Below, in pieces: positions 1-12,541 of a stretch of 64,000 nt of DNA (within the stretch, counting starts at the first letter, position 1; each line of letters opens with the position of its first letter). Source of the DNA: Gemmatimonadota bacterium (lineage in GTDB: Bacteria > Gemmatimonadota > Gemmatimonadetes > Palauibacterales > Palauibacteraceae). The notes beneath the pieces were generated by a model. It searched no databases. It was not told the origin of the DNA and worked only from the letters and a program-made list of their open reading frames with translations. The DNA lies in assembly GCA_965116475.1 (NCBI GenBank), contig OZ220691.1:640001-704000 (forward strand), given 5' to 3'. Made by a program: the position numbers and the translations under genes.

Positions 1-2664
1 TGGCTCGCCTACGCCAGCCGCGAGGACACGGAGACCGGGATCCGGCTCCGCGAACTCGACTCGGGCGAGGAGCGCTGGCTCGCCTATCCCGTGCAGCGGG
101 ATGACCAGGAGTCGACGGCCTCGATGGACGTGCACCCGGGCTACGCCTTCACGCCGGACTCCGAGGCGATCGTCATCTCCTACGGCGGCGGGATCTGGCG
201 CGTTCCGGTCGACGGCAGCGACCCGGCGGAGATCCCGTTCACGGTCCACGCGGAGGTCGCGGTCGGCCCGGAGGTCGACTTCGAGTACCCGATCGAGGAC
301 ACGCCGACTTTCGTCGTGAAGCAGATCCGCAACACGCGGCCGTCGCCCGACGGCTCGCGCGTCGCCTTTACGGCGCTGGACCGGCTCTACGTCGCGGACC
401 TTGCCGACGGAACGCCGCGCCGCCTCACGGAGGACGAGGTCGGAGAGTATCACCCGGTGTGGTCTCCGGATGGGAGCTCGGTGGCCTACGTGACGTGGGA
501 TGATGACGCGGGCGAGGGCCACATCCGCCGCGTGTCCGCGGAGGGCGGCGCGAGCACGAACCTCACGCAGGAGCCCGCCTACTACCAGCAGCCCGCCTGG
601 TCCCCCGACGGCGGGCGCATCGTGGCGATCCGCTCGTCGCGCCGGAACGTGCAGGAGGCGGTCGACCCCTTCATCGGCTTCGGGCTCGACTCCGAGTTCG
701 TGTGGGTTCCGTCCGGGGGCGGGGACCTGACCCGCATCGGCCCCACCGGCGGCCGCCGGGAACCACACTTCACGTCGGACCCGGACCGCATCTACTACTA
801 CGGCCTGGCGCGCGCGGAGGCGGTGCCCGGGTCGCCGGTTCCGCCCACACCGACGACCGCGCTCTCCTCCGCCCGCTGGGACGACACGGACCGGCGGCAG
901 CACCTGGCGGTGACGGCCCGTGCGAACCTGGAGGCGGGCGGCGTGCCGGCGGCGTATGAGCGGTACGAACGCTCGCCGCGGTCCGACCTCCCCATGCCGC
1001 GGACGCACGACGACGACCAGCCGCGGGAACTCATCCTGCGCCTGGGGGCCGGGTCGGTCGTCATGGCGCCTCAGGGCGACCTGGCGCTGGCCCACATCGG
1101 CGACGACCTGTACGCGGTGACGGTGCCGGACCTCGGCGCCACGCTGCCCCGGATCGACGTCGCCAAGCCGGACTCGGCGGGGGTGCCCGCGTGGAAGCTC
1201 AACGACCTCGGGGCGGAGTTCCCGGTATGGGGGGCCGACGGACGGACGGTCCACTGGTCGCTGGGCAACGCCCTCTTCACGTACGACCTGGACGCGGCCC
1301 TCGCGGACACGGCCTACACGCCCGCCGAACGGCGGATCGAGGTGACGGCCGAGCGCGACATCCCGCGCGGCACCGTGGTCCTCCGCGGCGGACGCGCGAT
1401 CACCATGAACGGCGACGAGATCCTCGAGAACGCCGACATCGTCGTCACCGACAACCGGATCACGTCGGTGCGGGCGGGGCCGGGCGAGGTGCCCGAGGGC
1501 GCGCAGGTCATCGACATCGGCGGCAAGACCGTCGTCCCCGGGTTCGTGGACACCCACGCCCACATGTGGAACCTGTGGGACTTCCACTGGGCGCGGCCGT
1601 GGATCTACCAGGCCAACCTCGCCTACGGGGTGACGACGACCCGCGATCCGCAGACGGCGACGACCGACGTCCTCTCCTACGAGGACATGGTGCGGGCGGG
1701 CCGGATGGTGGGACCGCGCGTCTATCACACGGGACCCGGCGTCTTCCAGTTCGACTTCATCCGCAGCTACGAGCACGCGCTCGACGTCCTGCGGAAGTAC
1801 AGCCGGTACTACGACACGAAGACGTTCAAGATGTACATGTCCGGCAACCGGCGTCAGCGTCAGTGGCTCATCATGGCGGCGCGCGAACTCGGCCTCATGC
1901 CCACGACGGAGGGCGGCCTCGAGTACCGCCTCAACATGACGCACGCCATGGACGGATACCCGGGGATCGAGCACTCGATGCCGATCGTGCCGGCGTACAA
2001 CGACGTCGTCGAACTGTTCGCGACGTCGGGCACGGTGAACTCCCCCACCCTCCTCGTCTCCTACGGGGGGCCGTGGGCGGAGAACTACTTCTACACGCGC
2101 TGGGACATCTTCGGCGACGAGAAGCTCACGCACTTCACGCCCAAGCGGGAACTCGACATCAAGGCGCGGCGCCTGGGGCTCTTCACGGGGCCGGGGCCGG
2201 GCGGCTGGTTCCACGAGGACGAATACGCCTTCCCGAAGCACGCGGCGTGGCTCGCGGACCTGGTGGAGGGTGGCGGAAACACCGGCGTCGGGAGCCACGG
2301 CCAGCTGCAGGGCCTCGGCTACCACTGGGAGTTGTGGGCGCTGCAGAGCGGCGGCATGGACGAGCACGACGCGCTGCGCGCCGCGACGCTGATGGGGGCC
2401 GAGGCGATCGGCCTCGGCGGCGATCTGGGCTCCATCGAACCCGGCAAGCTCGCGGACCTCGTGATCCTCGACGCGGATCCGCTCGCGAACATCCGGAACA
2501 CGAACGAGATCGACAAGGTGATGATGAACGGGCGACTCTACGACGGCGACACGCTCGACGAACTGTGGCCGAGACAACGGCCGGCCCCGAACGAACCGTG
2601 GCGGGACACCGCGCCCGCGGTAACGACCACCGTAAGTGTCGGCGACCGGGGAGGTGACCGATGA
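1..2664 (+). CDS. Amidohydrolase with N-terminal TolB-like (PD40) beta-propeller repeats, 5'-truncated by the window edge
   Basis: Frame is open from base 1 (WLAYASREDTETG...), upstream of the track's GTG at 91. Repeated WSPDG motifs, PGFVDTHAH metal-binding motif, GSIEPGKLADLVILD C-terminal motif. Confidence 0.9.
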   Translation, partial: WLAYASREDTETGIRLRELDSGEERWLAYPVQRDDQESTASMDVHPGYAFTPDSEAIVISYGGGIWRVPVDGSDPAEIPFTVHAEVAVGPEVDFEYPIEDTPTFVVKQIRNTRPSPDGSRVAFTALDRLYVADLADGTPRRLTEDEVGEYHPVWSPDGSSVAYVTWDDDAGEGHIRRVSAEGGASTNLTQEPAYYQQPAWSPDGGRIVAIRSSRRNVQEAVDPFIGFGLDSEFVWVPSGGGDLTRIGPTGGRREPHFTSDPDRIYYYGLARAEAVPGSPVPPTPTTALSSARWDDTDRRQHLAVTARANLEAGGVPAAYERYERSPRSDLPMPRTHDDDQPRELILRLGAGSVVMAPQGDLALAHIGDDLYAVTVPDLGATLPRIDVAKPDSAGVPAWKLNDLGAEFPVWGADGRTVHWSLGNALFTYDLDAALADTAYTPAERRIEVTAERDIPRGTVVLRGGRAITMNGDEILENADIVVTDNRITSVRAGPGEVPEGAQVIDIGGKTVVPGFVDTHAHMWNLWDFHWARPWIYQANLAYGVTTTRDPQTATTDVLSYEDMVRAGRMVGPRVYHTGPGVFQFDFIRSYEHALDVLRKYSRYYDTKTFKMYMSGNRRQRQWLIMAARELGLMPTTEGGLEYRLNMTHAMDGYPGIEHSMPIVPAYNDVVELFATSGTVNSPTLLVSYGGPWAENYFYTRWDIFGDEKLTHFTPKRELDIKARRLGLFTGPGPGGWFHEDEYAFPKHAAWLADLVEGGGNTGVGSHGQLQGLGYHWELWALQSGGMDEHDALRAATLMGAEAIGLGGDLGSIEPGKLADLVILDADPLANIRNTNEIDKVMMNGRLYDGDTLDELWPRQRPAPNEPWRDTAPAVTTTVSVGDRGGDR

Positions 2665-5600
2665 GCCCCCGCGAGAGGCTGGCACGGATCGGCAGGGCGG
2701 CGGCGCTGGCCGCGCTGGTCGCTTCGGTGGCCGGGGTTCCGGCGGCGGCCCAGGTGGTGTTGGGCCCCGGCGGTCCCGGAAACCGCAATCCGCTCCCCCT
2801 GCGCGGCGCCCGCAAGGCCACGTTCACGGCCACCGAGGGCACGTGGATGTCGCTCGACGTGAGTCCGGACGGCACGACGATCGTGTTCGACCTCCTGGGC
2901 GACCTCTACACGATGCCCATCGAGGGCGGATCGGCGTCGCCCCTCCTCACGGGGATGGCCTACGACACGCAGCCCCGCTTCAGCCCGGACGGCGAGTCGG
3001 TGGCCTTCATCTCCGACCGCAGCGGGGGCGACGCGCTGTGGAAGATGCGGCTCGATCTCACGGACACCACCCGGGTGGCCGGCGGCGGATCCAGCCTCAT
3101 GCTGTCGCCCGAATGGAGCCCCGACGGCGTCTACATCGTGGCCAGCCGCTCGAGCGGGCTCGGCGGGGTGGCGCAGCTCGCCATGTACCACGCCGAGCGC
3201 GGGTCTCCCCTGCCGCTGCCGGGATCGCCCCTGCAGAAGCGGATCGGCGCGGCGTTCAGCCCGGACGGCCGCTACGTCTGGTACGCGGGGGGGTCCGGCG
3301 ACTGGACGTACAACGCGGTGCTGCCGCTCTACCAGCTCTACCGCTACGACCGTGACACGGGCACGACGACGACCATGACGAACCGGTACGGGTCCGCGTT
3401 CCGCCCGGCGATCTCGCCCGACGGCCGCTGGCTCGTGTACGGCACCCGCTACAACGCGGACACGGGGCTCCGGAAGCGGGACCTCGAGACGGGCGAGGAG
3501 AGCTGGCTCGCCTACCCCGTGCAGCGCGACGAGCAGGAGTCGCGGGCGCCGCTCGACCTCCTGCCGGGCTACGCCTTCCTGCCGGACGGTTCGGCGATCG
3601 TCATCTCCTACGGGGGCAGGATCTGGAACGTTCCCATGGACGGGGGCGAACCGGCGGAAATCCCGTTCGAGGCGGAGGTCGAACTCGATGTCGGCCCGCG
3701 CGTGTCGTTCGAGTACCAGATCGACACCACGGCGATGGTCACGGCGAGCCAGATCCGGAGCCCCGTCGTCGGGCCCGATGGCGAGCAGGTGGTGTTCACG
3801 GCCTTCGACCGCCTCTGGATCCGCGACCTGCCCGATGGCGAGGCGCGCCGCCTCACGGAGGGCGATGCGGGCGAGTTCCACCCGCAGTGGTCGCCCGATG
3901 GCCGCTGGATCGCCTACACGACGTGGGACGACACCGACGGCGGCCACATCATGAAGGTGGCCGCGGAGGGCGGCGAACCGATCCGGCTCTCGGCCACGGC
4001 GGCCCTCTACTACAACGTGGCGTGGTCGCCGGATGGCGGGCGGATCGTCGCCTCGCGCGGCGCCGCGCGTCAGCTCAAGGAAGCGGCGGGCGCCTTCTTC
4101 GGGCCCATCGGCGGCGAGTTCGTGTGGGTGCCGGCGGCCGGGCCGGAGCCGGCGGAGGCGGAGGTCATCTCGCCCACCGGACTCCGCGACGTGCCGCACT
4201 TCGCGGCGGACGACCCGGACCGGATCTACGCCTACAGCCCGGTCGAGGGGCTCGTGTCCTTCCGCTGGGACGGCACGGACGTGAAGCGCCATCTGATCGT
4301 GCGCGGGCGCCAGGGCATCGCCGGCATCGGCGACCCCCACCCCAACGAGTGGGAGTTCCTGCCCCGGCGGGTCTTCCCGTGGCGGCAGGGCCCCGACCCC
4401 ACCGACCCCGACCCCGCGGCCGAGCCCGGCGGACCGACGCCCGCGGGCCTGATCATGCTCTCTCCCGAGGCGGACCGCGCCTTCGTGCAGTTCGGACGCG
4501 ACCTCTACGTCGTGGACATGGCCGAGATCGGAGAGCAGCCCCCGACGATCATGCTCATCACGCTGAACTCCGCCCCGCTGCCGATCCGCAAGGTCACGGA
4601 CGTGGGCGGCGAGTTCCCCTCCTGGGCGCCGGACGGCGGCGCCCTGCACTGGTCTCTGGGGAACGTCCTGTTCACCTACGACCTGGACCACGTCGAGGCC
4701 GAGGAGGAGGAGGAGGAGGTCACCGCCCGGGGGCGCGCCCTCCTGCGCGTGAGAGCGGCGGCGATCACCGACACGCTCGCGGAGAAGCGGGCCGAGGTGG
4801 ACAGCCTGGAGAACGCCGACGAGGAGGTGCCGGAGGAGCTGGAGGACGAGATCACGCGGCTCCAGGCCGACTCCGTGCAGGTCGTGGCCGACTCGCTGCT
4901 GGCCCGCGCCGACTCGATCCGGCAGGCGGCCGAGGAGGTGGCGGAGAAATCGGCCGCGGTGCGGGCGGGCGACGAGGAGGTCCTCGCCGACACGACGGAG
5001 ACGTACGAGGCGCACGAGCGCCGGATCGAGGCGAAGCTGCCGCGCGACATCCCGCGCGGCACGGTCGCGCTCACGGGTGGGCGGATCATCACGATGACGG
5101 AGGTCCGCGACGAAGCCGCCAGCGACACGACGGGAGCCCCGGCCGATACCGCGGGCGCGGAGGAGGAGGAGGAACCGGAAGAGCCGGACGAGCCCGCCAT
5201 GAAGCCGCGCATCATCGAGAACGGCGTGGTGCTCGTGACGGACAACCGCATCGTCGCCGTGGGCCCGGCGGATTCGGTCGAGGTGCCGGACAGCGCCACG
5301 GTGATCGATGTCTCCGGCAAGACACTCGTCCCCGGCTTCATCGACACCCACTACCATGCGCAGTGGCTCGTGCCGGAGGTCCATCCGGAGGAGGTGTGGC
5401 AGTACCTCGCGACGCTCTCCTACGGCGTGACGACGACGCGCGATCCCCAGACCGCCACGACGGACATCCTGAGCTACACCGACCGGGTGCGGACCGGCGG
5501 CATGACCGGCCCGCGCATCTACTCGACGGGACCCGGCGTGTTCGCGGGCGAGAACATCCGCGACGCGGACCACGCCAAGACCATCCTGCGACGCTACGCC

Positions 5601-6461
5601 GAGTACTTCGACACGAAGACGCTCAAGATGTACATGTCGGGCAACCGCCAGCAGCGCCAGTGGATCATCCAGGCGGCGCGCGACCTCGAGCTCATGCCCA
5701 CGACCGAGGGCGGACTCGACTACAAGATCGACATCACGCACGCGATCGACGGATACCCCGGCATCGAGCACAACCTGCCGATCGCGCCGATCTACTCCGA
5801 CGTGGTGGAGCTGTTCAAGACGTCGGAGACGACGAACAGCCCGACGCTGCTCGTTTCATACGGCGGTCCGTTCGGGGAGAACTACTTCTACACGCACGAG
5901 GACGTGCTGGGAGATGAGAAGCTCGCGACGTTCGTGCCCAAGGCGAACATCGACGCGCGGGCGCGGCGGCGCGGGCCCGGCGCCGGGGGGAGCCCCGGAG
6001 AAGGCGGCTGGTTCCTCGAAGAGGAGTACGTCTTCGCGCGCCACGGCGAGTTCGTGAAAACGATGCTCGAAGAGGACGCCCGCATGGCCGTCGGGAGCCA
6101 CGGACAGATCCAGGGCGTCGGGTATCACTGGGAGCTGTGGGCGATGGCGGCCGGCGGCGCCTCGAACTTCGACATGCTCAGGGCGGCGACGATCCTCGGG
6201 GCCGAGGCGATCGGATTCGGGGATCAGCTCGGGAGCATCGAGCAGGGCAAGCTCGCGGACATCGTCGTCCTCAACTCGAACCCGCTCGACGACCTGCGGA
6301 ACACGGTCGACATCCGCTACGTGATGAAGGACGGACGGCTGTACGACGGGATGACGCTGGACGAGATGCACCCCGAGGCGCGGACGCTCGAGCGGCAGCG
6401 GCCGGCGGAGGAAAACGCCGTCGGCGCCGCCGCCGGAATCCGCGGGAACCCGCGCAGGTAG
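2661..6461 (+). CDS. Secreted amidohydrolase with TolB-like propellers (paralog of upstream gene, with acidic insertions)
   Basis: ATGA overlap with upstream gene, GGAGG RBS, signal peptide ending AAA-Q, SPDG repeats, PGFIDTHYH, GKLADIVVL. Confidence 0.92.
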   Translation: MSPRERLARIGRAAALAALVASVAGVPAAAQVVLGPGGPGNRNPLPLRGARKATFTATEGTWMSLDVSPDGTTIVFDLLGDLYTMPIEGGSASPLLTGMAYDTQPRFSPDGESVAFISDRSGGDALWKMRLDLTDTTRVAGGGSSLMLSPEWSPDGVYIVASRSSGLGGVAQLAMYHAERGSPLPLPGSPLQKRIGAAFSPDGRYVWYAGGSGDWTYNAVLPLYQLYRYDRDTGTTTTMTNRYGSAFRPAISPDGRWLVYGTRYNADTGLRKRDLETGEESWLAYPVQRDEQESRAPLDLLPGYAFLPDGSAIVISYGGRIWNVPMDGGEPAEIPFEAEVELDVGPRVSFEYQIDTTAMVTASQIRSPVVGPDGEQVVFTAFDRLWIRDLPDGEARRLTEGDAGEFHPQWSPDGRWIAYTTWDDTDGGHIMKVAAEGGEPIRLSATAALYYNVAWSPDGGRIVASRGAARQLKEAAGAFFGPIGGEFVWVPAAGPEPAEAEVISPTGLRDVPHFAADDPDRIYAYSPVEGLVSFRWDGTDVKRHLIVRGRQGIAGIGDPHPNEWEFLPRRVFPWRQGPDPTDPDPAAEPGGPTPAGLIMLSPEADRAFVQFGRDLYVVDMAEIGEQPPTIMLITLNSAPLPIRKVTDVGGEFPSWAPDGGALHWSLGNVLFTYDLDHVEAEEEEEEVTARGRALLRVRAAAITDTLAEKRAEVDSLENADEEVPEELEDEITRLQADSVQVVADSLLARADSIRQAAEEVAEKSAAVRAGDEEVLADTTETYEAHERRIEAKLPRDIPRGTVALTGGRIITMTEVRDEAASDTTGAPADTAGAEEEEEPEEPDEPAMKPRIIENGVVLVTDNRIVAVGPADSVEVPDSATVIDVSGKTLVPGFIDTHYHAQWLVPEVHPEEVWQYLATLSYGVTTTRDPQTATTDILSYTDRVRTGGMTGPRIYSTGPGVFAGENIRDADHAKTILRRYAEYFDTKTLKMYMSGNRQQRQWIIQAARDLELMPTTEGGLDYKIDITHAIDGYPGIEHNLPIAPIYSDVVELFKTSETTNSPTLLVSYGGPFGENYFYTHEDVLGDEKLATFVPKANIDARARRRGPGAGGSPGEGGWFLEEEYVFARHGEFVKTMLEEDARMAVGSHGQIQGVGYHWELWAMAAGGASNFDMLRAATILGAEAIGFGDQLGSIEQGKLADIVVLNSNPLDDLRNTVDIRYVMKDGRLYDGMTLDEMHPEARTLERQRPAEENAVGAAAGIRGNPRR

Positions 6462-7798: not shown

Positions 7799-8488
7799 TT
7801 AACGCAACGTCACTTCGTCACCGTCCAGGGTGCGGATCCCCGCCACGAGCGCGGGCTCCGGCCCCTCGTCCACTTCGAGCGCCAGGTCCAGCGACGCGAG
7901 GGTGGATCGTACCGCGGCGGGGTCCGGATGTTCAGCCCGGAACGAGATGAGCCGCCCGCCCGGCGGCGTCGCGCGGGCCGGGTGCGGCGTCGTTCCCCAG
8001 TCGATGAAGAAAGGTACGAGACCTTCGTGCAGGACGGCGGTGAAGGCCGTGATCTCCCAGCTCAGCTCGGTGCCGTCCGGCCGGAGCCGCGAGCCGGGCC
8101 GCACCGGGCCCAGCGGCACGCCTCGGCTCGACGCCCGTGCGGCGAGCGCCTCGAGGTCGGTTCCGCGGGCCGCCCACGTGACGAGCCGGGGCTCGGCGAG
8201 TCCCTCGATCCCGAACGGGAGCGGCTCGTCCCGCGGAGGCGCTTCGGGGTCCGGACCGAGGATCTCCAGGTAGATGTCGCCCCCGAGCGAGAGGAGATGG
8301 TTCGCGGTCCCGAGGTTCTCGTGGCGGCCGCCGAACGCGGCTTCGACGCCGAGCCGCTCGGCGACCCACGCCACCCCTTCCTCGAGGTCGGTGGTCCCCA
8401 GCAGCAGATGGTCGAGATTCGGCGGAACGGCCGGCGCGGCCGGCGCACCCGGTCCGCCCGGTGGCAGTGTCGGCGGGAGCATGGCCAC
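7799..8488 (-). CDS. VOC/glyoxalase-like protein (Glyoxalase_3 type)
   Basis: LDHLL...GGRH..LGTANHLL..G..YLEI and PFFIDW motifs. Confidence 0.85.
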   Translation of the reverse strand: MAMLPPTLPPGGPGAPAAPAVPPNLDHLLLGTTDLEEGVAWVAERLGVEAAFGGRHENLGTANHLLSLGGDIYLEILGPDPEAPPRDEPLPFGIEGLAEPRLVTWAARGTDLEALAARASSRGVPLGPVRPGSRLRPDGTELSWEITAFTAVLHEGLVPFFIDWGTTPHPARATPPGGRLISFRAEHPDPAAVRSTLASLDLALEVDEGPEPALVAGIRTLDGDEVTLR

Positions 8489-8493
8489 TTCCG

Positions 8494-9066
8494 TCAGCCT
8501 CCCTCGTCTTCGAGTTCCAGGTCTTCGAGTTCGACGCCGAGCCCGTCGGCGATCCGGTTCACGAACGCATAGTAGGCGGTGACGGCGCAGATATCGTGGA
8601 TCGCGCGATCATCGAACCCGTGCGCCTTCAATCCGTCGACCGCGGATCCGTGCTCGCCGCCCGGGTCGAGCGTCAGCCGCGCGGCGTAGTCGAGCATCGC
8701 CCGGTCGGCCTCGTCCAGTTCGGCCGTCCCATGGTCCGTCGCGAGGGCGGTGATGAGGCGTTCGTGCGCCTCGTTGGAGCCGCCGGCGCCGGTCGCGTCG
8801 GGCAGACGGTCGAGCAGGCGACGGAGACCCTCTCCGTGATGGACAATTCAGTAGCGGCAGGCGTTGAGCCCCGACACGACGACCGCAATCATCTCCCGCT
8901 GGATCCGGGTCAGCGGCCCCGGCCCGTACATGAGTTCGCGGTAGAGATCGTAGTGGAGCCGGATGACGCGGCTGTGGACGCCGTGGATACGGATGATGTT
9001 GTCGTCGTCCGCGACGCGGTCCTCCTCGGGGATCCCCGCCGGATCCGGGTAGTCGATGAAGGCCAC
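8494..9066 (-). CDS. AhpD/carboxymuconolactone-decarboxylase-like peroxidase, probable selenoprotein (in-frame UGA at 8850-8848; about 190 aa)
   Basis: Track ORFs 8848..9066 and 8494..8697 are in the same frame, with only the TGA between them. Read-through gives REMIAVVVSGLNACRY-U-IVHHGEGL...YYAFVNRIADGLG, an AhpD CxxC motif with TGA at the second Cys. Confidence 0.88.
8809..8850 (-). promoter_or_regulatory. Putative bacterial SECIS element
   Basis: Downstream of UGA: ACGGAGA-GGG-UCUCCGU perfect 7-bp hairpin (8821-8837) with a G-rich loop beginning 17 nt after UGA; possible lower GUC/GAC pairing. Confidence 0.7.
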
Positions 9067-9068
9067 GG

Positions 9069-10289
9069 TCAGTGCTCGTCCGAGTCGGGTTCGCGGCCGG
9101 CCGACAGGATGCGGGCGACTTCCTCCACGTCCTTGTCGCCCCGGCCGCTGAGACAGATGACGACGCGGCTCCCCGCCCAGCGCGCGGCTTCCCGCCGCAG
9201 GCCCGCCAGCGCGTGGGCGCTCTCGAGCGCCGGGATCAGCCCCTCGAGCCGGCAGAGGTCCCGGAACGCCGCGAGGGCCTCCTCATCCGTCACCGATTCG
9301 TAGCGGACCTGTCCCGTCTCCTTGAGCCACGAATGCTCCGGGCCGACGCCGGGATAGTCGAGGCCGGCGGACACGGAGTGGGCGGGAACGACCTGCCCGT
9401 CCTCGTCCTGGAGCAGGTAGCTGTAGTTGCCGTGAAGCACCCCGGGCTCGCCGGCCGTGAGCGAGGCGGAGTGCCGGCCCGTCTCGACGCCGTGCCCCGC
9501 CGCCTCCACGCCGACGAGGGCGACGCGCGCCCCCGCCGCGACCTCACGGTTGCGCTCGATGAAGGGGGTGAAGATGCCGATCGCGTTGGAGCCGCCGCCC
9601 ACGCAGGCGAAGACCGCGTCCGGCTCCACGCCGCGGTCGGCGAGTTGCCCGACCGTCTCGTCGCCGATCACGCGCTGGAAGTCGCGCACAAGTTCCGGAT
9701 AGGGCGCGGGGCCGACGACGGAGCCGATGATGTAGTGCGTCGTGTCCACGTTCGTGACCCAGTCGCGGATCGCCTCGTTCGTCGCGTCCTTGAGCGTCCG
9801 GCTCCCGCTCGACACCGGGATGACCTCGGCGCCCAGCATCTCCATGCGCTCGACGTTGAGCGCCTGCCGGCGCATGTCCTCCTCGCCCATGTAGACGGCG
9901 CACTCGAAGTCGAGCGCCGCGCAGGCCGTGGCCGTCGCCACGCCGTGCTGGCCCGCGCCCGTCTCGGCGATGATCCGGGCCTTGTTCATGCGTTTCGCGA
10001 GCAGCGCCTGGCCGATCGTGTTGTTGATCTTGTGGGCGCCCGTGTGGTTGAGATCCTCGCGCTTCAGCCACAGGTCGAGCCCGAGGTCCGCCCCCAGGCG
10101 CGGCGCCCGGTAGAGCGGCGTCGGCCGTCCCACGTAGTGCGCGAGGCTGGCATCGAGCGCCGCCCGGAAGGCGGGATCGTCGCGGGCTTCGGCCCATGCA
10201 GCGGTGAGTTCATCGAGCGCCGGGATCAACGTCTCGGGCACGAACTGCCCGCCGAAGTCGCCGAACCAGCCGGGGGCCGGGCTGCTCAT
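9069..10289 (-). CDS. trpB: Tryptophan synthase beta subunit
   Basis: [43 protein letters not shown] motifs; ATG at 10289 overlaps trpF stop. Confidence 0.97.
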
Positions 10290-10915
10290 TTCGCGGCCGC
10301 CAGGAATTCGAGGATGAGGTCGAGCGACTTCTCCCCCGGAGCCCGCTCGACGCCCGAGGAGACATCGACGATGTCCGGACGCACGTCCCGGATCGCGCGC
10401 GCCACGTTGTCCGCGTTCAGCCCGCCCGCGAGCGCGAGCCCGCACCCGTCCCGTTCCAGCTCCGCCAGCCACTCGTGGGGGAAGCCCGTCCCGGTGCCGC
10501 CGGGTCCGCGCGGCGAGAACCCCTCCACGAGGATCGCGTCCGCCGCCTCCCGGTACTCGTCCCACCCCCGGGCCAGCGCGTCGCTCGACGTGGGCCGGAG
10601 GCCCTTCCAGACGTCCAGCCCCTCGTCGCGCAGGCGGTCGCAGAGTTCGGGCGGCTCGGAGCCGGCGAGCTGCGCGACGTGGAACTCCGCGATGTCCCGT
10701 TTGACGAGGATCTCCGCCGGGCCCGCGTCCACGAACACCCCCACGGCGCGCGTGCCGCCTTCGAGCGCCTCCACGACCCCGGCGGCTTCCCCGGCCGTGA
10801 TCTCCCGCACCCGGCCGGCGAACACCACGCCCACGTAGTCCGCGCCGGCGCGGGAGGTGGCCGTGGCGTGCCGGGGCTCCCGGAGACCGCAGATCTTCAC
10901 CCTGGCCCGGCTCAT
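10286..10915 (-). CDS. trpF: Phosphoribosylanthranilate isomerase
   Basis: [22 protein letters not shown] motifs. Confidence 0.95.
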
Positions 10916-11763
10916 GGCGCGCCGTCTCCGTCGGCCGCGGCGTCGGCGCCGGCCGGCTGCATCCGGCCGCTCCGGGGCCGCCGGGGATGGCCGACGAGCG
11001 CCTCGACCCCCGCCGCCGGATCGCCCGCCATCAGCCAGCCGCCGACCAGCACCGCGTCCGACCCCGCTGAGCCCGCCGCCGCCGCGTCCTCCGCGGACCG
11101 GATCCCGCTCTCCGCTACGGCCACGACATCCGCCGGAAGCGCCTCGATCAAGCTCAGCGAGCGCGCGAGGTCCACCTCGAAGGTCGCCAGGTCCCGCGCG
11201 TTCACGCCGACGATCCGGGCCCCGGCTTCGAGCGCCCTCCCGATCTCCTCCTCCTCGTGGGCCTCCACGAGCGCCGCGAGGCCGAGGTCGTCCGCGAGTT
11301 CGAGCAGTTCCCGCAGCCGGGCGTCGGCGAGCGCGCGCACGATGAGCAGGATCGCATCCGCGCCCGCGGCCCGCGCCTCGTACAACTGGACGGGATCTAG
11401 CGTGAAATCCTTGCGGAGGACGGGAACCCCCACGGCGTCCTTCGCCGACCTCAGATCGTCCAGCGAGCCGCCGAAGTAGCGTTCATCCGTGAGGACCGAA
11501 ATCGCGGCCGCCCCCCCGGAGGCGTACACGCTCGCCACGCCCGCCGCCTGGGCGTACGGGTTGATGTCGCCGGCGGAGGGCGAACGGCGCTTGAACTCCG
11601 CGACGACGGAGACTTCCCCGGGTCGGCGCAGGGACGCCTCGAAACCGCGCGGGGGCGGGGCTCCCTCCGCCTGCGCGCGAATCGCGCTCCGGAACAACTG
11701 GAGCCGCGCGACCTCTTCCCGCTTCGCCGCGAGGATCTCGTCGAGAATCGTGTCGTGTGCCAT
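10912..11763 (-). CDS. trpC: Indole-3-glycerol phosphate synthase
   Basis: [37 protein letters not shown] motifs; start taken at [13 protein letters not shown]. Confidence 0.96.
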
Positions 11764-11837
11764 GGGCGCCAAGCTGCGACCGCCGCTATCCCGCCGCAAA
11801 ACCTCGGCGGCCGCGCCGGTTCGCGTGGAAGGTTGCG

Positions 11838-11875
11838 CTTCGGTGCATGTTCGGGTACATTCGGGTATCCTTCGG
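11838..11875 (+). promoter_or_regulatory. Candidate LexA operator: four phased TTCGG direct repeats
   Basis: TTCGG at 11839, 11850, 11860 and 11871 (spacing 11/10/11) in the trpC-lexA divergent intergenic region. Confidence 0.5.
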
Positions 11876-11932
11876 CCCGCCGCAAGCGTCTGGGCGGGCG
11901 CGGTGCGGAACCTGCGAGCGGAGTGAGAAACG

Positions 11933-12541
11933 ATGGCGCTTACGAAGCGACAGCGGGAGATGCTGGACTTCCTCGAGGGCTTCATCCGGTTCCGCGGGTA
12001 TTCCCCGAGCTTCGAGGAGATCGCGGAGGAGTTCGGCTACCGCTCGCTGGCGACGGTGCACGAACACCTTCAGAACCTGCAGGCGAAGGGGTATATCCGA
12101 AAGAACTACAATGAGAGTCGGTCGGTCGAACTGGTGGAGGGAAAGCTCCAGGTCGCCGCGGTCGAACTGCCGCTGTACGGCAACGTGGCGGCGGGTCAGC
12201 CCATAGAGGTCATCGAGGAGCAGGAGACGGTCTCCGTCCCCGAAGACATGATCGCGGGCTCCCTGAGCGAACACTATGTGCTTCGGGTGCGCGGCGATTC
12301 GATGATCGACGAACAGATCCGCGACGGCGACTACGTCATCGTCCAGTCGCGCGAAACGGCGCACAACGGCGAAATGGTGATCGCGCTCGTCGATGGCGAG
12401 AACGCCACCATGAAGAAGATCTACCTGGAGAAGGGCCGGATCCGGCTTCAGCCCGCGAACCCGGCGCTCACACCGATCTACCTGCACCCATCGCAGGTCA
12501 CGGTCCAGGGCGTGGTGATCGGAGTCATCCGGCGCTACTGA
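11933..12541 (+). CDS. lexA: SOS repressor LexA
   Basis: LTKRQ winged-HTH, VAAG cleavage site, GDSM catalytic Ser, ATMKK catalytic Lys. Confidence 0.97.
   Translation: MALTKRQREMLDFLEGFIRFRGYSPSFEEIAEEFGYRSLATVHEHLQNLQAKGYIRKNYNESRSVELVEGKLQVAAVELPLYGNVAAGQPIEVIEEQETVSVPEDMIAGSLSEHYVLRVRGDSMIDEQIRDGDYVIVQSRETAHNGEMVIALVDGENATMKKIYLEKGRIRLQPANPALTPIYLHPSQVTVQGVVIGVIRRY

Follow-up and report, generated by a model that had tools for sequence, protein, structure and literature searches.

The window analysed here (the whole stretch of 64,000 nucleotides) belongs to a Gemmatimonadota genome assembled as a single 3.62-Mb contig with 69% GC and 96% completeness. On the minus strand of the window, from 9066 to 8494, lies one reading frame of 190 sense codons plus a stop, which starts with GTG, ends with a TGA at 8496-8494, and is interrupted solely by another TGA at 8850-8848 (codon 73), in the peptide context LNACRY*IVHHGE (Table 1). 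The preliminary description of this locus had proposed that two short open reading frames form a single frame broken only by this TGA, that the TGA stands where the AhpD motif has its second Cys, that the 50 codons linking it to the ATG of the downstream fragment are open, and that the frame then runs into the C-terminus of the family. Each of these points was borne out: the motif reads C70-R-Y-U73-x-x-x-H77, no stop interrupts codons 74-123, which lead to the ATG at 8697 (codon 124), and AYYAFVNRIADGLG is present in the C-terminus of the read-through protein. In profile searches, the read-through protein scores 103.1 bits against TIGR01926, above the cut-off of 81.8, which is missed by the 72-aa N-terminal half alone (34.6 bits), the ATG-started half (38.2 bits) and the entire stretch following the TGA (53.8 bits); the match of the read-through protein to the Pfam CMD domain reaches 45.6 bits.

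The GTG start is located 2 nt past the trpB stop codon, and the gene ends 5 bases before a glyoxalase-like gene. Together with trpC and trpF, both recognised from sequence, trpB (detected by HMM) occupies window positions 9069-11985 upstream, and trpA is found on the same strand approximately 13 kb further, just outside the window (G000:C1:635094-635792). We compared gene neighborhoods across 79 loci, with Pfam searches on 94 of the 96 flanking ORFs selected (the two omitted were short and on the minus strand). A trpB gene is present within 3 kb upstream in 26 of the 79 loci, all from Gemmatimonadota, with trpB, the AhpD-like gene and trpA in a row in three of them (trpA directly downstream in L057, L065, and L068); the glyoxalase-like gene adjoins the AhpD-like gene in 14 of the 79. 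Within this set of loci and flanking ORFs, no redox partner gene is conserved beyond close kin. A functional tie to the trp operon is unsupported because no neighbor is conserved beyond close kin, the trp linkage being confined to one Gemmatimonadota lineage.

Redox-related neighbors are scattered among these loci, namely AhpC/TSA genes in L086 and L101 and a disulfide oxidoreductase gene in L092; the gene upstream in L086 is peroxiredoxin-like and contains an in-frame TGA. A PrdB-like gene is found near the AhpD-like gene in eight of the 79 loci and displays an in-frame TGA, in a UxxC motif, in five, from Gemmatimonadales: in L070, L078, L094, and L102, it is located directly upstream of the AhpD-like selenoprotein gene, and in L089, about 1.7 kb upstream. 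Elsewhere in the window, two large proteins are encoded in tandem on the plus strand (91-2664 and 2661-6461); the second, of which the first appears to be a paralogue, combines PD40 beta-propeller repeats with an amidohydrolase domain.

Table 1. Features of the AhpD-like locus and genes of the selenocysteine machinery (window positions, or contig positions where prefixed C1)
Feature	Position	Strand	Evidence or remark
AhpD-like (TIGR01926, peroxidase-related enzyme) selenoprotein gene, 190 aa	8494..9066	-	frame, TIGR01926, model
In-frame TGA, codon 73, predicted selenocysteine	8848..8850	-	TGA in 108/110 loci; Cys in homologues
CxxU redox motif C70-R-Y-U73	8848..8859	-	C70 in 88/88 distinct TGA loci
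Bacterial SECIS-type hairpin, 7-bp stem, GGG loop, -9.0 kcal/mol folded locally	8821..8837	-	fold and codon constraint
Glu58, AhpD proton-relay Glu position, 12 residues N-terminal of the first Cys	8893..8895	-	invariant in 88 aligned proteins
His77, AhpD proton-relay His position, 4 residues past the second Cys/Sec	8836..8838	-	88/88 distinct TGA loci
trpB frame, immediately upstream; likely true start near 10289	9069..10565	-	TIGR00263 over cut-off
Glyoxalase-like (VOC) gene, directly downstream	7799..8488	-	PF13468 E 5.8e-44
selA	C1:3481421		414 bits
selB	C1:3523523		373 bits
tRNA-Sec, anticodon TCA	C1:3530731		79.7 bits
selD	C1:177246-176319		split into two frames by a one-base insertion

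Conservation of the in-frame TGA and alternation with Cys

Orthologues at 61-96% identity were identified in 33 of the 35 other genomes of the same genus, each with one TGA inside the match; of the remaining two genomes, one has a distant copy only and the other, which is 85% complete, has none. The closest named records, with proteins 87-94% identical, come from Candidatus Palauibacter or Gemmatimonadota. Among 110 loci (30 from the same-genus set and 80 from a wider search, with genomes partly shared), column 73 has TGA in 108 and TGT in one (L114), the last locus being a misaligned fragment left out of the codon count (L117). Because retrieval relied on sequence words of the query itself, the sample favors close kin, and its counts should not be read as independent trials. 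The loci come from Gemmatimonadota, Acidobacteriota, Thermodesulfobacteriota, Chloroflexota, Planctomycetota and other lineages. Removal of duplicates leaves 88 distinct TGA loci, all with Cys70, Tyr72, His76, and His77, and all with 95-127 codons open downstream of the TGA. The dN/dS ratio, pooled over pairwise comparisons of the 30 genus loci, is 0.14 for codons 2-72, 0.41 for codons 74-123, and 0.18 for codons 124-180, indicating that purifying selection acts on both flanks of the TGA. A true stop codon, resulting from a nonsense mutation in a pseudogene or from a sequencing error in this one genome, has a vanishingly small probability: a single-base error is indeed probable at one or more sites of the assembly (in selD), but this reading is refuted by the conservation of the same TGA across independent assemblies, in 33/33 same-genus orthologues and 108/110 loci, and is opposed by the long open stretch downstream in the 88 loci, with a dN/dS well below 1.

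Database searches matched 733 homologues, of which 120 were listed and scored at the Sec column. Among these listed matches, 48 have Cys in this column, 48 have Trp, 11 have another residue, and 13 leave it uncovered, all 13 beginning just downstream of it. Thus, the alternation of Cys with TGA, which the preliminary description had suggested looking for, is evident among the matches listed, and its expectation that annotation would split such genes is exemplified by the 13 truncated proteins, including a 109-aa NCBI 'peroxidase'. The Trp residues are probably a gene-caller artefact whereby TGA is translated under another code, because for four of them, alignment to DNA loci at 81-92% identity places a TGA at the position of the Trp. 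A quick, unrooted tree with 155 rows contains a 99-supported group of 69, 54 of which are TGA forms, and nested inside this group are Cys forms (P0005-7, P0010, and P0013; P0011, P0014, and P0017), a topology from which we draw no direction of Sec/Cys change.

As for the remaining residues, Arg, Gly, Leu or Ser occupies the Sec column in P0021, P0031, P0045, P0053, P0072, P0077, P0092, P0097, and P0111, and each of these amino acids has a codon one base from TGA. These substitutions may mark decay of the Sec gene or read errors; judging from the 11 of 120 listed homologues with a residue other than Cys or Trp, the redox residue is lost in some lineages.

The hairpin downstream of the UGA and the selenocysteine machinery

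A feature absent from the preliminary description is the hairpin at 8837-8821, which spans 17 nt, begins 10 bases past the UGA, carries a 3-nt GGG loop starting 17 nt past the UGA, and overlaps the His77 codon with its stem. According to the legend of Fig. 2 in a 2026 review (PMC13188914), bacterial SECIS elements have a loop of 3-9 nt with a G early in it, a stem of 4-16 bp, a distance of 16-37 nt from the UGA and a minimum free energy of at most -7.5; the hairpin falls within all four published criteria. The core of the stem, six pairs, is complete in 75 of the 88 distinct loci (probability 0.0085 for random synonymous coding with the codon usage of this genome). Moreover, Gly+5 is encoded by GGA or GGG only (82/82), and its base always pairs with the U of Leu+8, as A-U or G-U (88/88), and Arg+9 is encoded by CGT in 76 of 83 loci, a codon that accounts for only 3% of 343 Arg codons in six genes of the window. 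Codon choice at these positions indicates that the hairpin is kept by rare synonymous codons, against codon preference. Furthermore, synonymous divergence is lower over codons 74-83 (0.27) than elsewhere (0.43-0.47).

Covariation of the stem is not significant in an alignment of 66 sequences, in which 99 of 500 shuffles scored as high and two-sided changes were found in only one of the six stem pairs; in the same alignment, 93% of stem cells are paired vs. 27-56% for slid partners. From this pattern, the stem is kept mostly as sequence. Folding of the 58-120 nt past the UGA revealed no stability beyond that of shuffled sequences (z-scores between +0.39 and -1.12), and the hairpin is missing from three of the four structures of minimum energy. 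The SECIS is visible only as a local hairpin and through the codon constraint. A paralogue elsewhere in the genome, whose protein is only 39% identical, has an almost identical hairpin with unchanged spacing. A similar SECIS-like hairpin is also still formed in a Cys form with TGC at the column (G141:C4:41414-41851, L131), and might be a relic of Sec-to-Cys replacement; a search of that genome for selA, selB, and tRNA-Sec found none of them.

The preliminary description had called for a search of the genome for the Sec machinery, and selA, selB, selD, and tRNA-Sec were all found. The selD gene is itself a TGA-containing selenoprotein gene, with its own in-frame TGA and hairpin. The base inserted in it falls in a C run (G000:C1:176969-176975; L005:1499-1505), and the frameshift is unique to this assembly among 59 genomes with a selD match. 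In the sequencing run that holds most words of the selD region, both contigs over the site lack the extra base (depths 20.3 and 15.1 of 35.4), and a related contig from an RNA run likewise has one base fewer. The insertion is probably an assembly error, because it is absent from the contigs, as distinct from raw reads, of this best-matching run, which may be the source sample.

A survey of 201 Gemmatimonadota genomes (G061-G252) detected the protein at E 1e-12 or better in 73, with a TGA inside the match in 71. Sec use looks common in this phylum because full-length selA is present in 162 of the 201 genomes (including G208, marked unpublished). The TGA form is found in 69 of these 162 genomes vs. 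2 of the 39 without full-length selA, for which the Fisher p of 3e-6 is an overstatement given the relatedness of the genomes. In both exceptions, the assembly is fragmented and contains selB and tRNA-Sec, and in one case also a selA fragment, so that all 71 TGA-form genomes in the survey carry Sec machinery. The case against a selenoprotein that the preliminary description had named, a genome devoid of this machinery together with homologues that never have TGA, is the opposite of what was found.

These observations bear on two further ways of reading the TGA. Decoding of UGA as Trp or Cys, through an alternative code or near-cognate read-through, could be invoked given that Trp is found in the column in 48 of the 120 listed homologues; we consider it extremely improbable, since the four Trp proteins that align to TGA loci point to an artefact, TGA is the usual genuine stop (80 of 110 terminal stops), and the only tRNA with a TCA anticodon among 52 is tRNA-Sec. 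A naturally split gene, in which translation would stop at the TGA and restart at the next codon to yield two chains that assemble, is likewise very improbable. The codon after the TGA is indeed ATG or one base from ATG in 84 of the 88 distinct loci (ATT 26, ATC 22, CTG 18, GTG 9, ATA 6, GTC 4, ATG 2, ACG 1), but it is ATG or GTG in only 11 of them, and Cys homologues have the same hydrophobic residue after the column. Moreover, such a split would remove the second redox residue and would leave both the hairpin and the association with the Sec machinery unexplained.

Given the conserved TGA, the hairpin and the Sec machinery, the TGA is predicted, with near certainty, to encode selenocysteine, so that the two fragments would constitute one protein. 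The selenoprotein reading of the preliminary description is thus supported by the Cys/TGA alternation along with the presence of selA, selB, selD, and tRNA-Sec.

Additional genes with in-frame TGA codons were observed in this genome. A second TIGR01926 selenoprotein gene (G000:C1:229534-228965, minus strand; L138) encodes a 189-aa protein with the motif C-F-Y-U-T-E-A-H (131.5 bits), has a SECIS hairpin very close to that of the gene described here, and lies downstream of a proline racemase/epimerase-like gene, recognised from motifs; a second TIGR01926 copy is present in most genomes of the genus. Four further candidates, two OsmC-like and two AhpC/TSA peroxiredoxin-like (G000:C1:1724348(+), 3169607(+), 2099783(-), and 1617677(+)), have an in-frame TGA at a Cys-like position followed by downstream hairpins. 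The composition-based scan of the genome for selenoproteins is crude, with the target gene itself unlisted, so that the list of candidates is incomplete.

Fold, active site and predicted activity

The predicted model, computed with Cys in place of Sec (pLDDT 93.4, pTM 0.90), has an all-helical AhpD-like fold. Its closest structures are 3C1L, 2PFX, 2PRR, 2OYO, and 6K40 (Z 21.7-22.6, rmsd 1.8-2.1, 28-31% identity), followed by Streptococcus pneumoniae AhpD (Z 18.8), Bmp8 (17.9), Pseudomonas PA0269 (17.4), sestrin 2 (14.4), and Mycobacterium tuberculosis AhpD (11.7). Residues E58, C70, Y72, U73, and H77 have the same spacing as the relay residues of PA0269 (Glu36, Cys48, Tyr50, Cys51, and His55) and M. 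tuberculosis AhpD (Glu118, Cys130, and His137) (PMC3141380). With respect to activity, PA0269 is described as a weak Cys-dependent peroxidase (PMC3141380). Loss of DR1765 (6K40) is reported to increase H2O2 sensitivity, with Cys mutants complementing poorly and the CxxC motif being needed (PMC8945050). For the AhpD-like gene product, the 'peroxidase' label is a prediction from fold and motif.

With regard to the mechanism, we propose that the ribosome reaches the UGA, where the hairpin 10-27 nt downstream would recruit SelB with Sec-tRNA(Sec), resulting in the insertion of Sec; the machinery and the hairpin are observed in this genome, and the role of SelB is predicted from established bacterial SECIS biology. 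Sec73 and Cys70 could then act as a redox pair, supported by Glu58, Tyr72, and His77 at the AhpD proton-relay positions. The most likely target of the Sec73 selenolate would be a peroxide or the disulfide of a partner protein, which it would reduce; resolution by Cys70 would then yield a selenenylsulfide, which a dithiol system of the cell would reduce again to complete the cycle. The catalytic roles of the two residues, the substrate class and the re-reduction step are all predicted by analogy with characterized relatives. We consider it very likely that the gene encodes a 190-aa AhpD-like oxidoreductase with Sec73 and such a Sec/Cys redox cycle, and likely, with somewhat less assurance, that antioxidant-type reduction of peroxides or disulfides is the job of the protein.

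Conceivably, the protein is a selenoprotein whose job would be reductive dehalogenation of brominated aromatics, as in Bmp8 and, chemically, in the Sec deiodinases. Bmp8 shares the fold (rmsd 2.5 over 167 aligned residues; profile E 7.7e-7), the gene follows trpB in close kin and directly precedes trpA in three loci, and most of the labelled sequencing runs that contain the selD region of this organism are sponge metagenomes, in which it makes up small shares, a weak pointer to habitat. Sponges are rich in bromo-organic compounds. We nevertheless deem such an activity unlikely: at only 19% identity, Bmp8 takes ninth place among the matching structures, behind the five TIGR01926-type ones at 28-31%, the gene spans many lineages with unrelated neighbors, and the trp linkage (26 of 79 loci) is limited to a single lineage of Gemmatimonadota. 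The more general proposition that Sec-containing TIGR01926 proteins are selenium-dependent reductive dehalogenases, a counterpart of the animal deiodinases on the Bmp8/AhpD fold, is drawn only from fold and habitat, and appears slightly less probable still. If it were true, a sponge-associated Palauibacter enzyme would strip bromine from aromatics of the host and might thereby supply the adjacent TrpB with indoles. The literature retrieved on AhpD, selenocysteine, debromination and dehalogenases contained no proposal of a Sec-containing TIGR01926 dehalogenase. For the protein studied here, the antioxidant-type reading is the one that we prefer.

Relationship to known AhpD-like proteins

Several AhpD/CMD families can be set beside the protein described here. 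NF041238 (AhpD_rel_CFYUT), the CMD-like PF02627 CxxU proteins and NF041047 have in common with it a CxxU motif in the AhpD/CMD helix hairpin; membership in NF041238 is rejected at 41.1 bits against a cut-off of 175, and the NF041047 profile gave no match to the protein at E 0.01. The debrominase Bmp8 (6OHI and 6OHJ), a dehalogenating CMD homologue (PMC7918430), likewise has the AhpD/CMD fold (the Z-score given above refers to 6OHI); it is, however, Cys-based, and belongs to a bromopyrrole biosynthesis cluster, with no such cluster at the present locus. M. tuberculosis AhpD and PA0269 are also more distant by structural comparison, and their relay of Glu, Cys, His or Tyr, Cys, and His matches E58/C70/Y72/U73/H77; M. 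tuberculosis AhpD is described as having a different topology and being encoded in an ahpC operon, in contrast to the present gene, which has no adjacent ahpC. The Cys-containing TIGR01926-type structures, DR1765 (6K40), Mlr4105 (3C1L), 2PFX, 2PRR, and 2OYO, have the same fold, length, and E-x11-C-x-Y-C core, but possess Cys where the present protein has Sec and differ from it by a variable insertion around residues 86-100.

That AhpD-like CxxU selenoproteins had already been described, as the preliminary description stated, is correct: they have been in print since 2005, when 27 of them (COG2128) were reported from the Sargasso Sea (PMC1088965). Subsequently, 299 sequences ('AhpD-like 1') were reported in the GOS survey (PMC2398784) and seven in the symbionts of Olavius (PMC1976440); one of the loci analysed here (L066, 62% identical) is that of the Olavius Delta 1 symbiont. 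The table of the 2026 review lists 'AhpD-like protein, TIGR01926, CxxU' (PMC13188914), and BSepDB has a page for the AhpD-like family. The term 'Gemmatimonad' is absent from the main text of this review and of the BSepDB paper, and selenium is unmentioned in the main text of the Palauibacterales description.

The gene is almost certainly a real selenoprotein gene, of a family known since 2005, and is in itself no discovery; what the present analysis offers is mainly a correction of annotation. Because these genes are split in public gene calls, or given a Trp in place of Sec, the use of Sec by Gemmatimonadota is easily missed. Few selenoproteins predicted from marine sources are more common than this family, the literature found on it holds no report of a purified Sec-containing member, and a clean example with a compact SECIS would be a convenient construct for a first assay of the family. 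With the same HMM matched over its cut-off, a CxxU motif, one Sec and a bacterial SECIS, the protein shows no difference in kind from the AhpD-like selenoprotein family (TIGR01926/COG2128).
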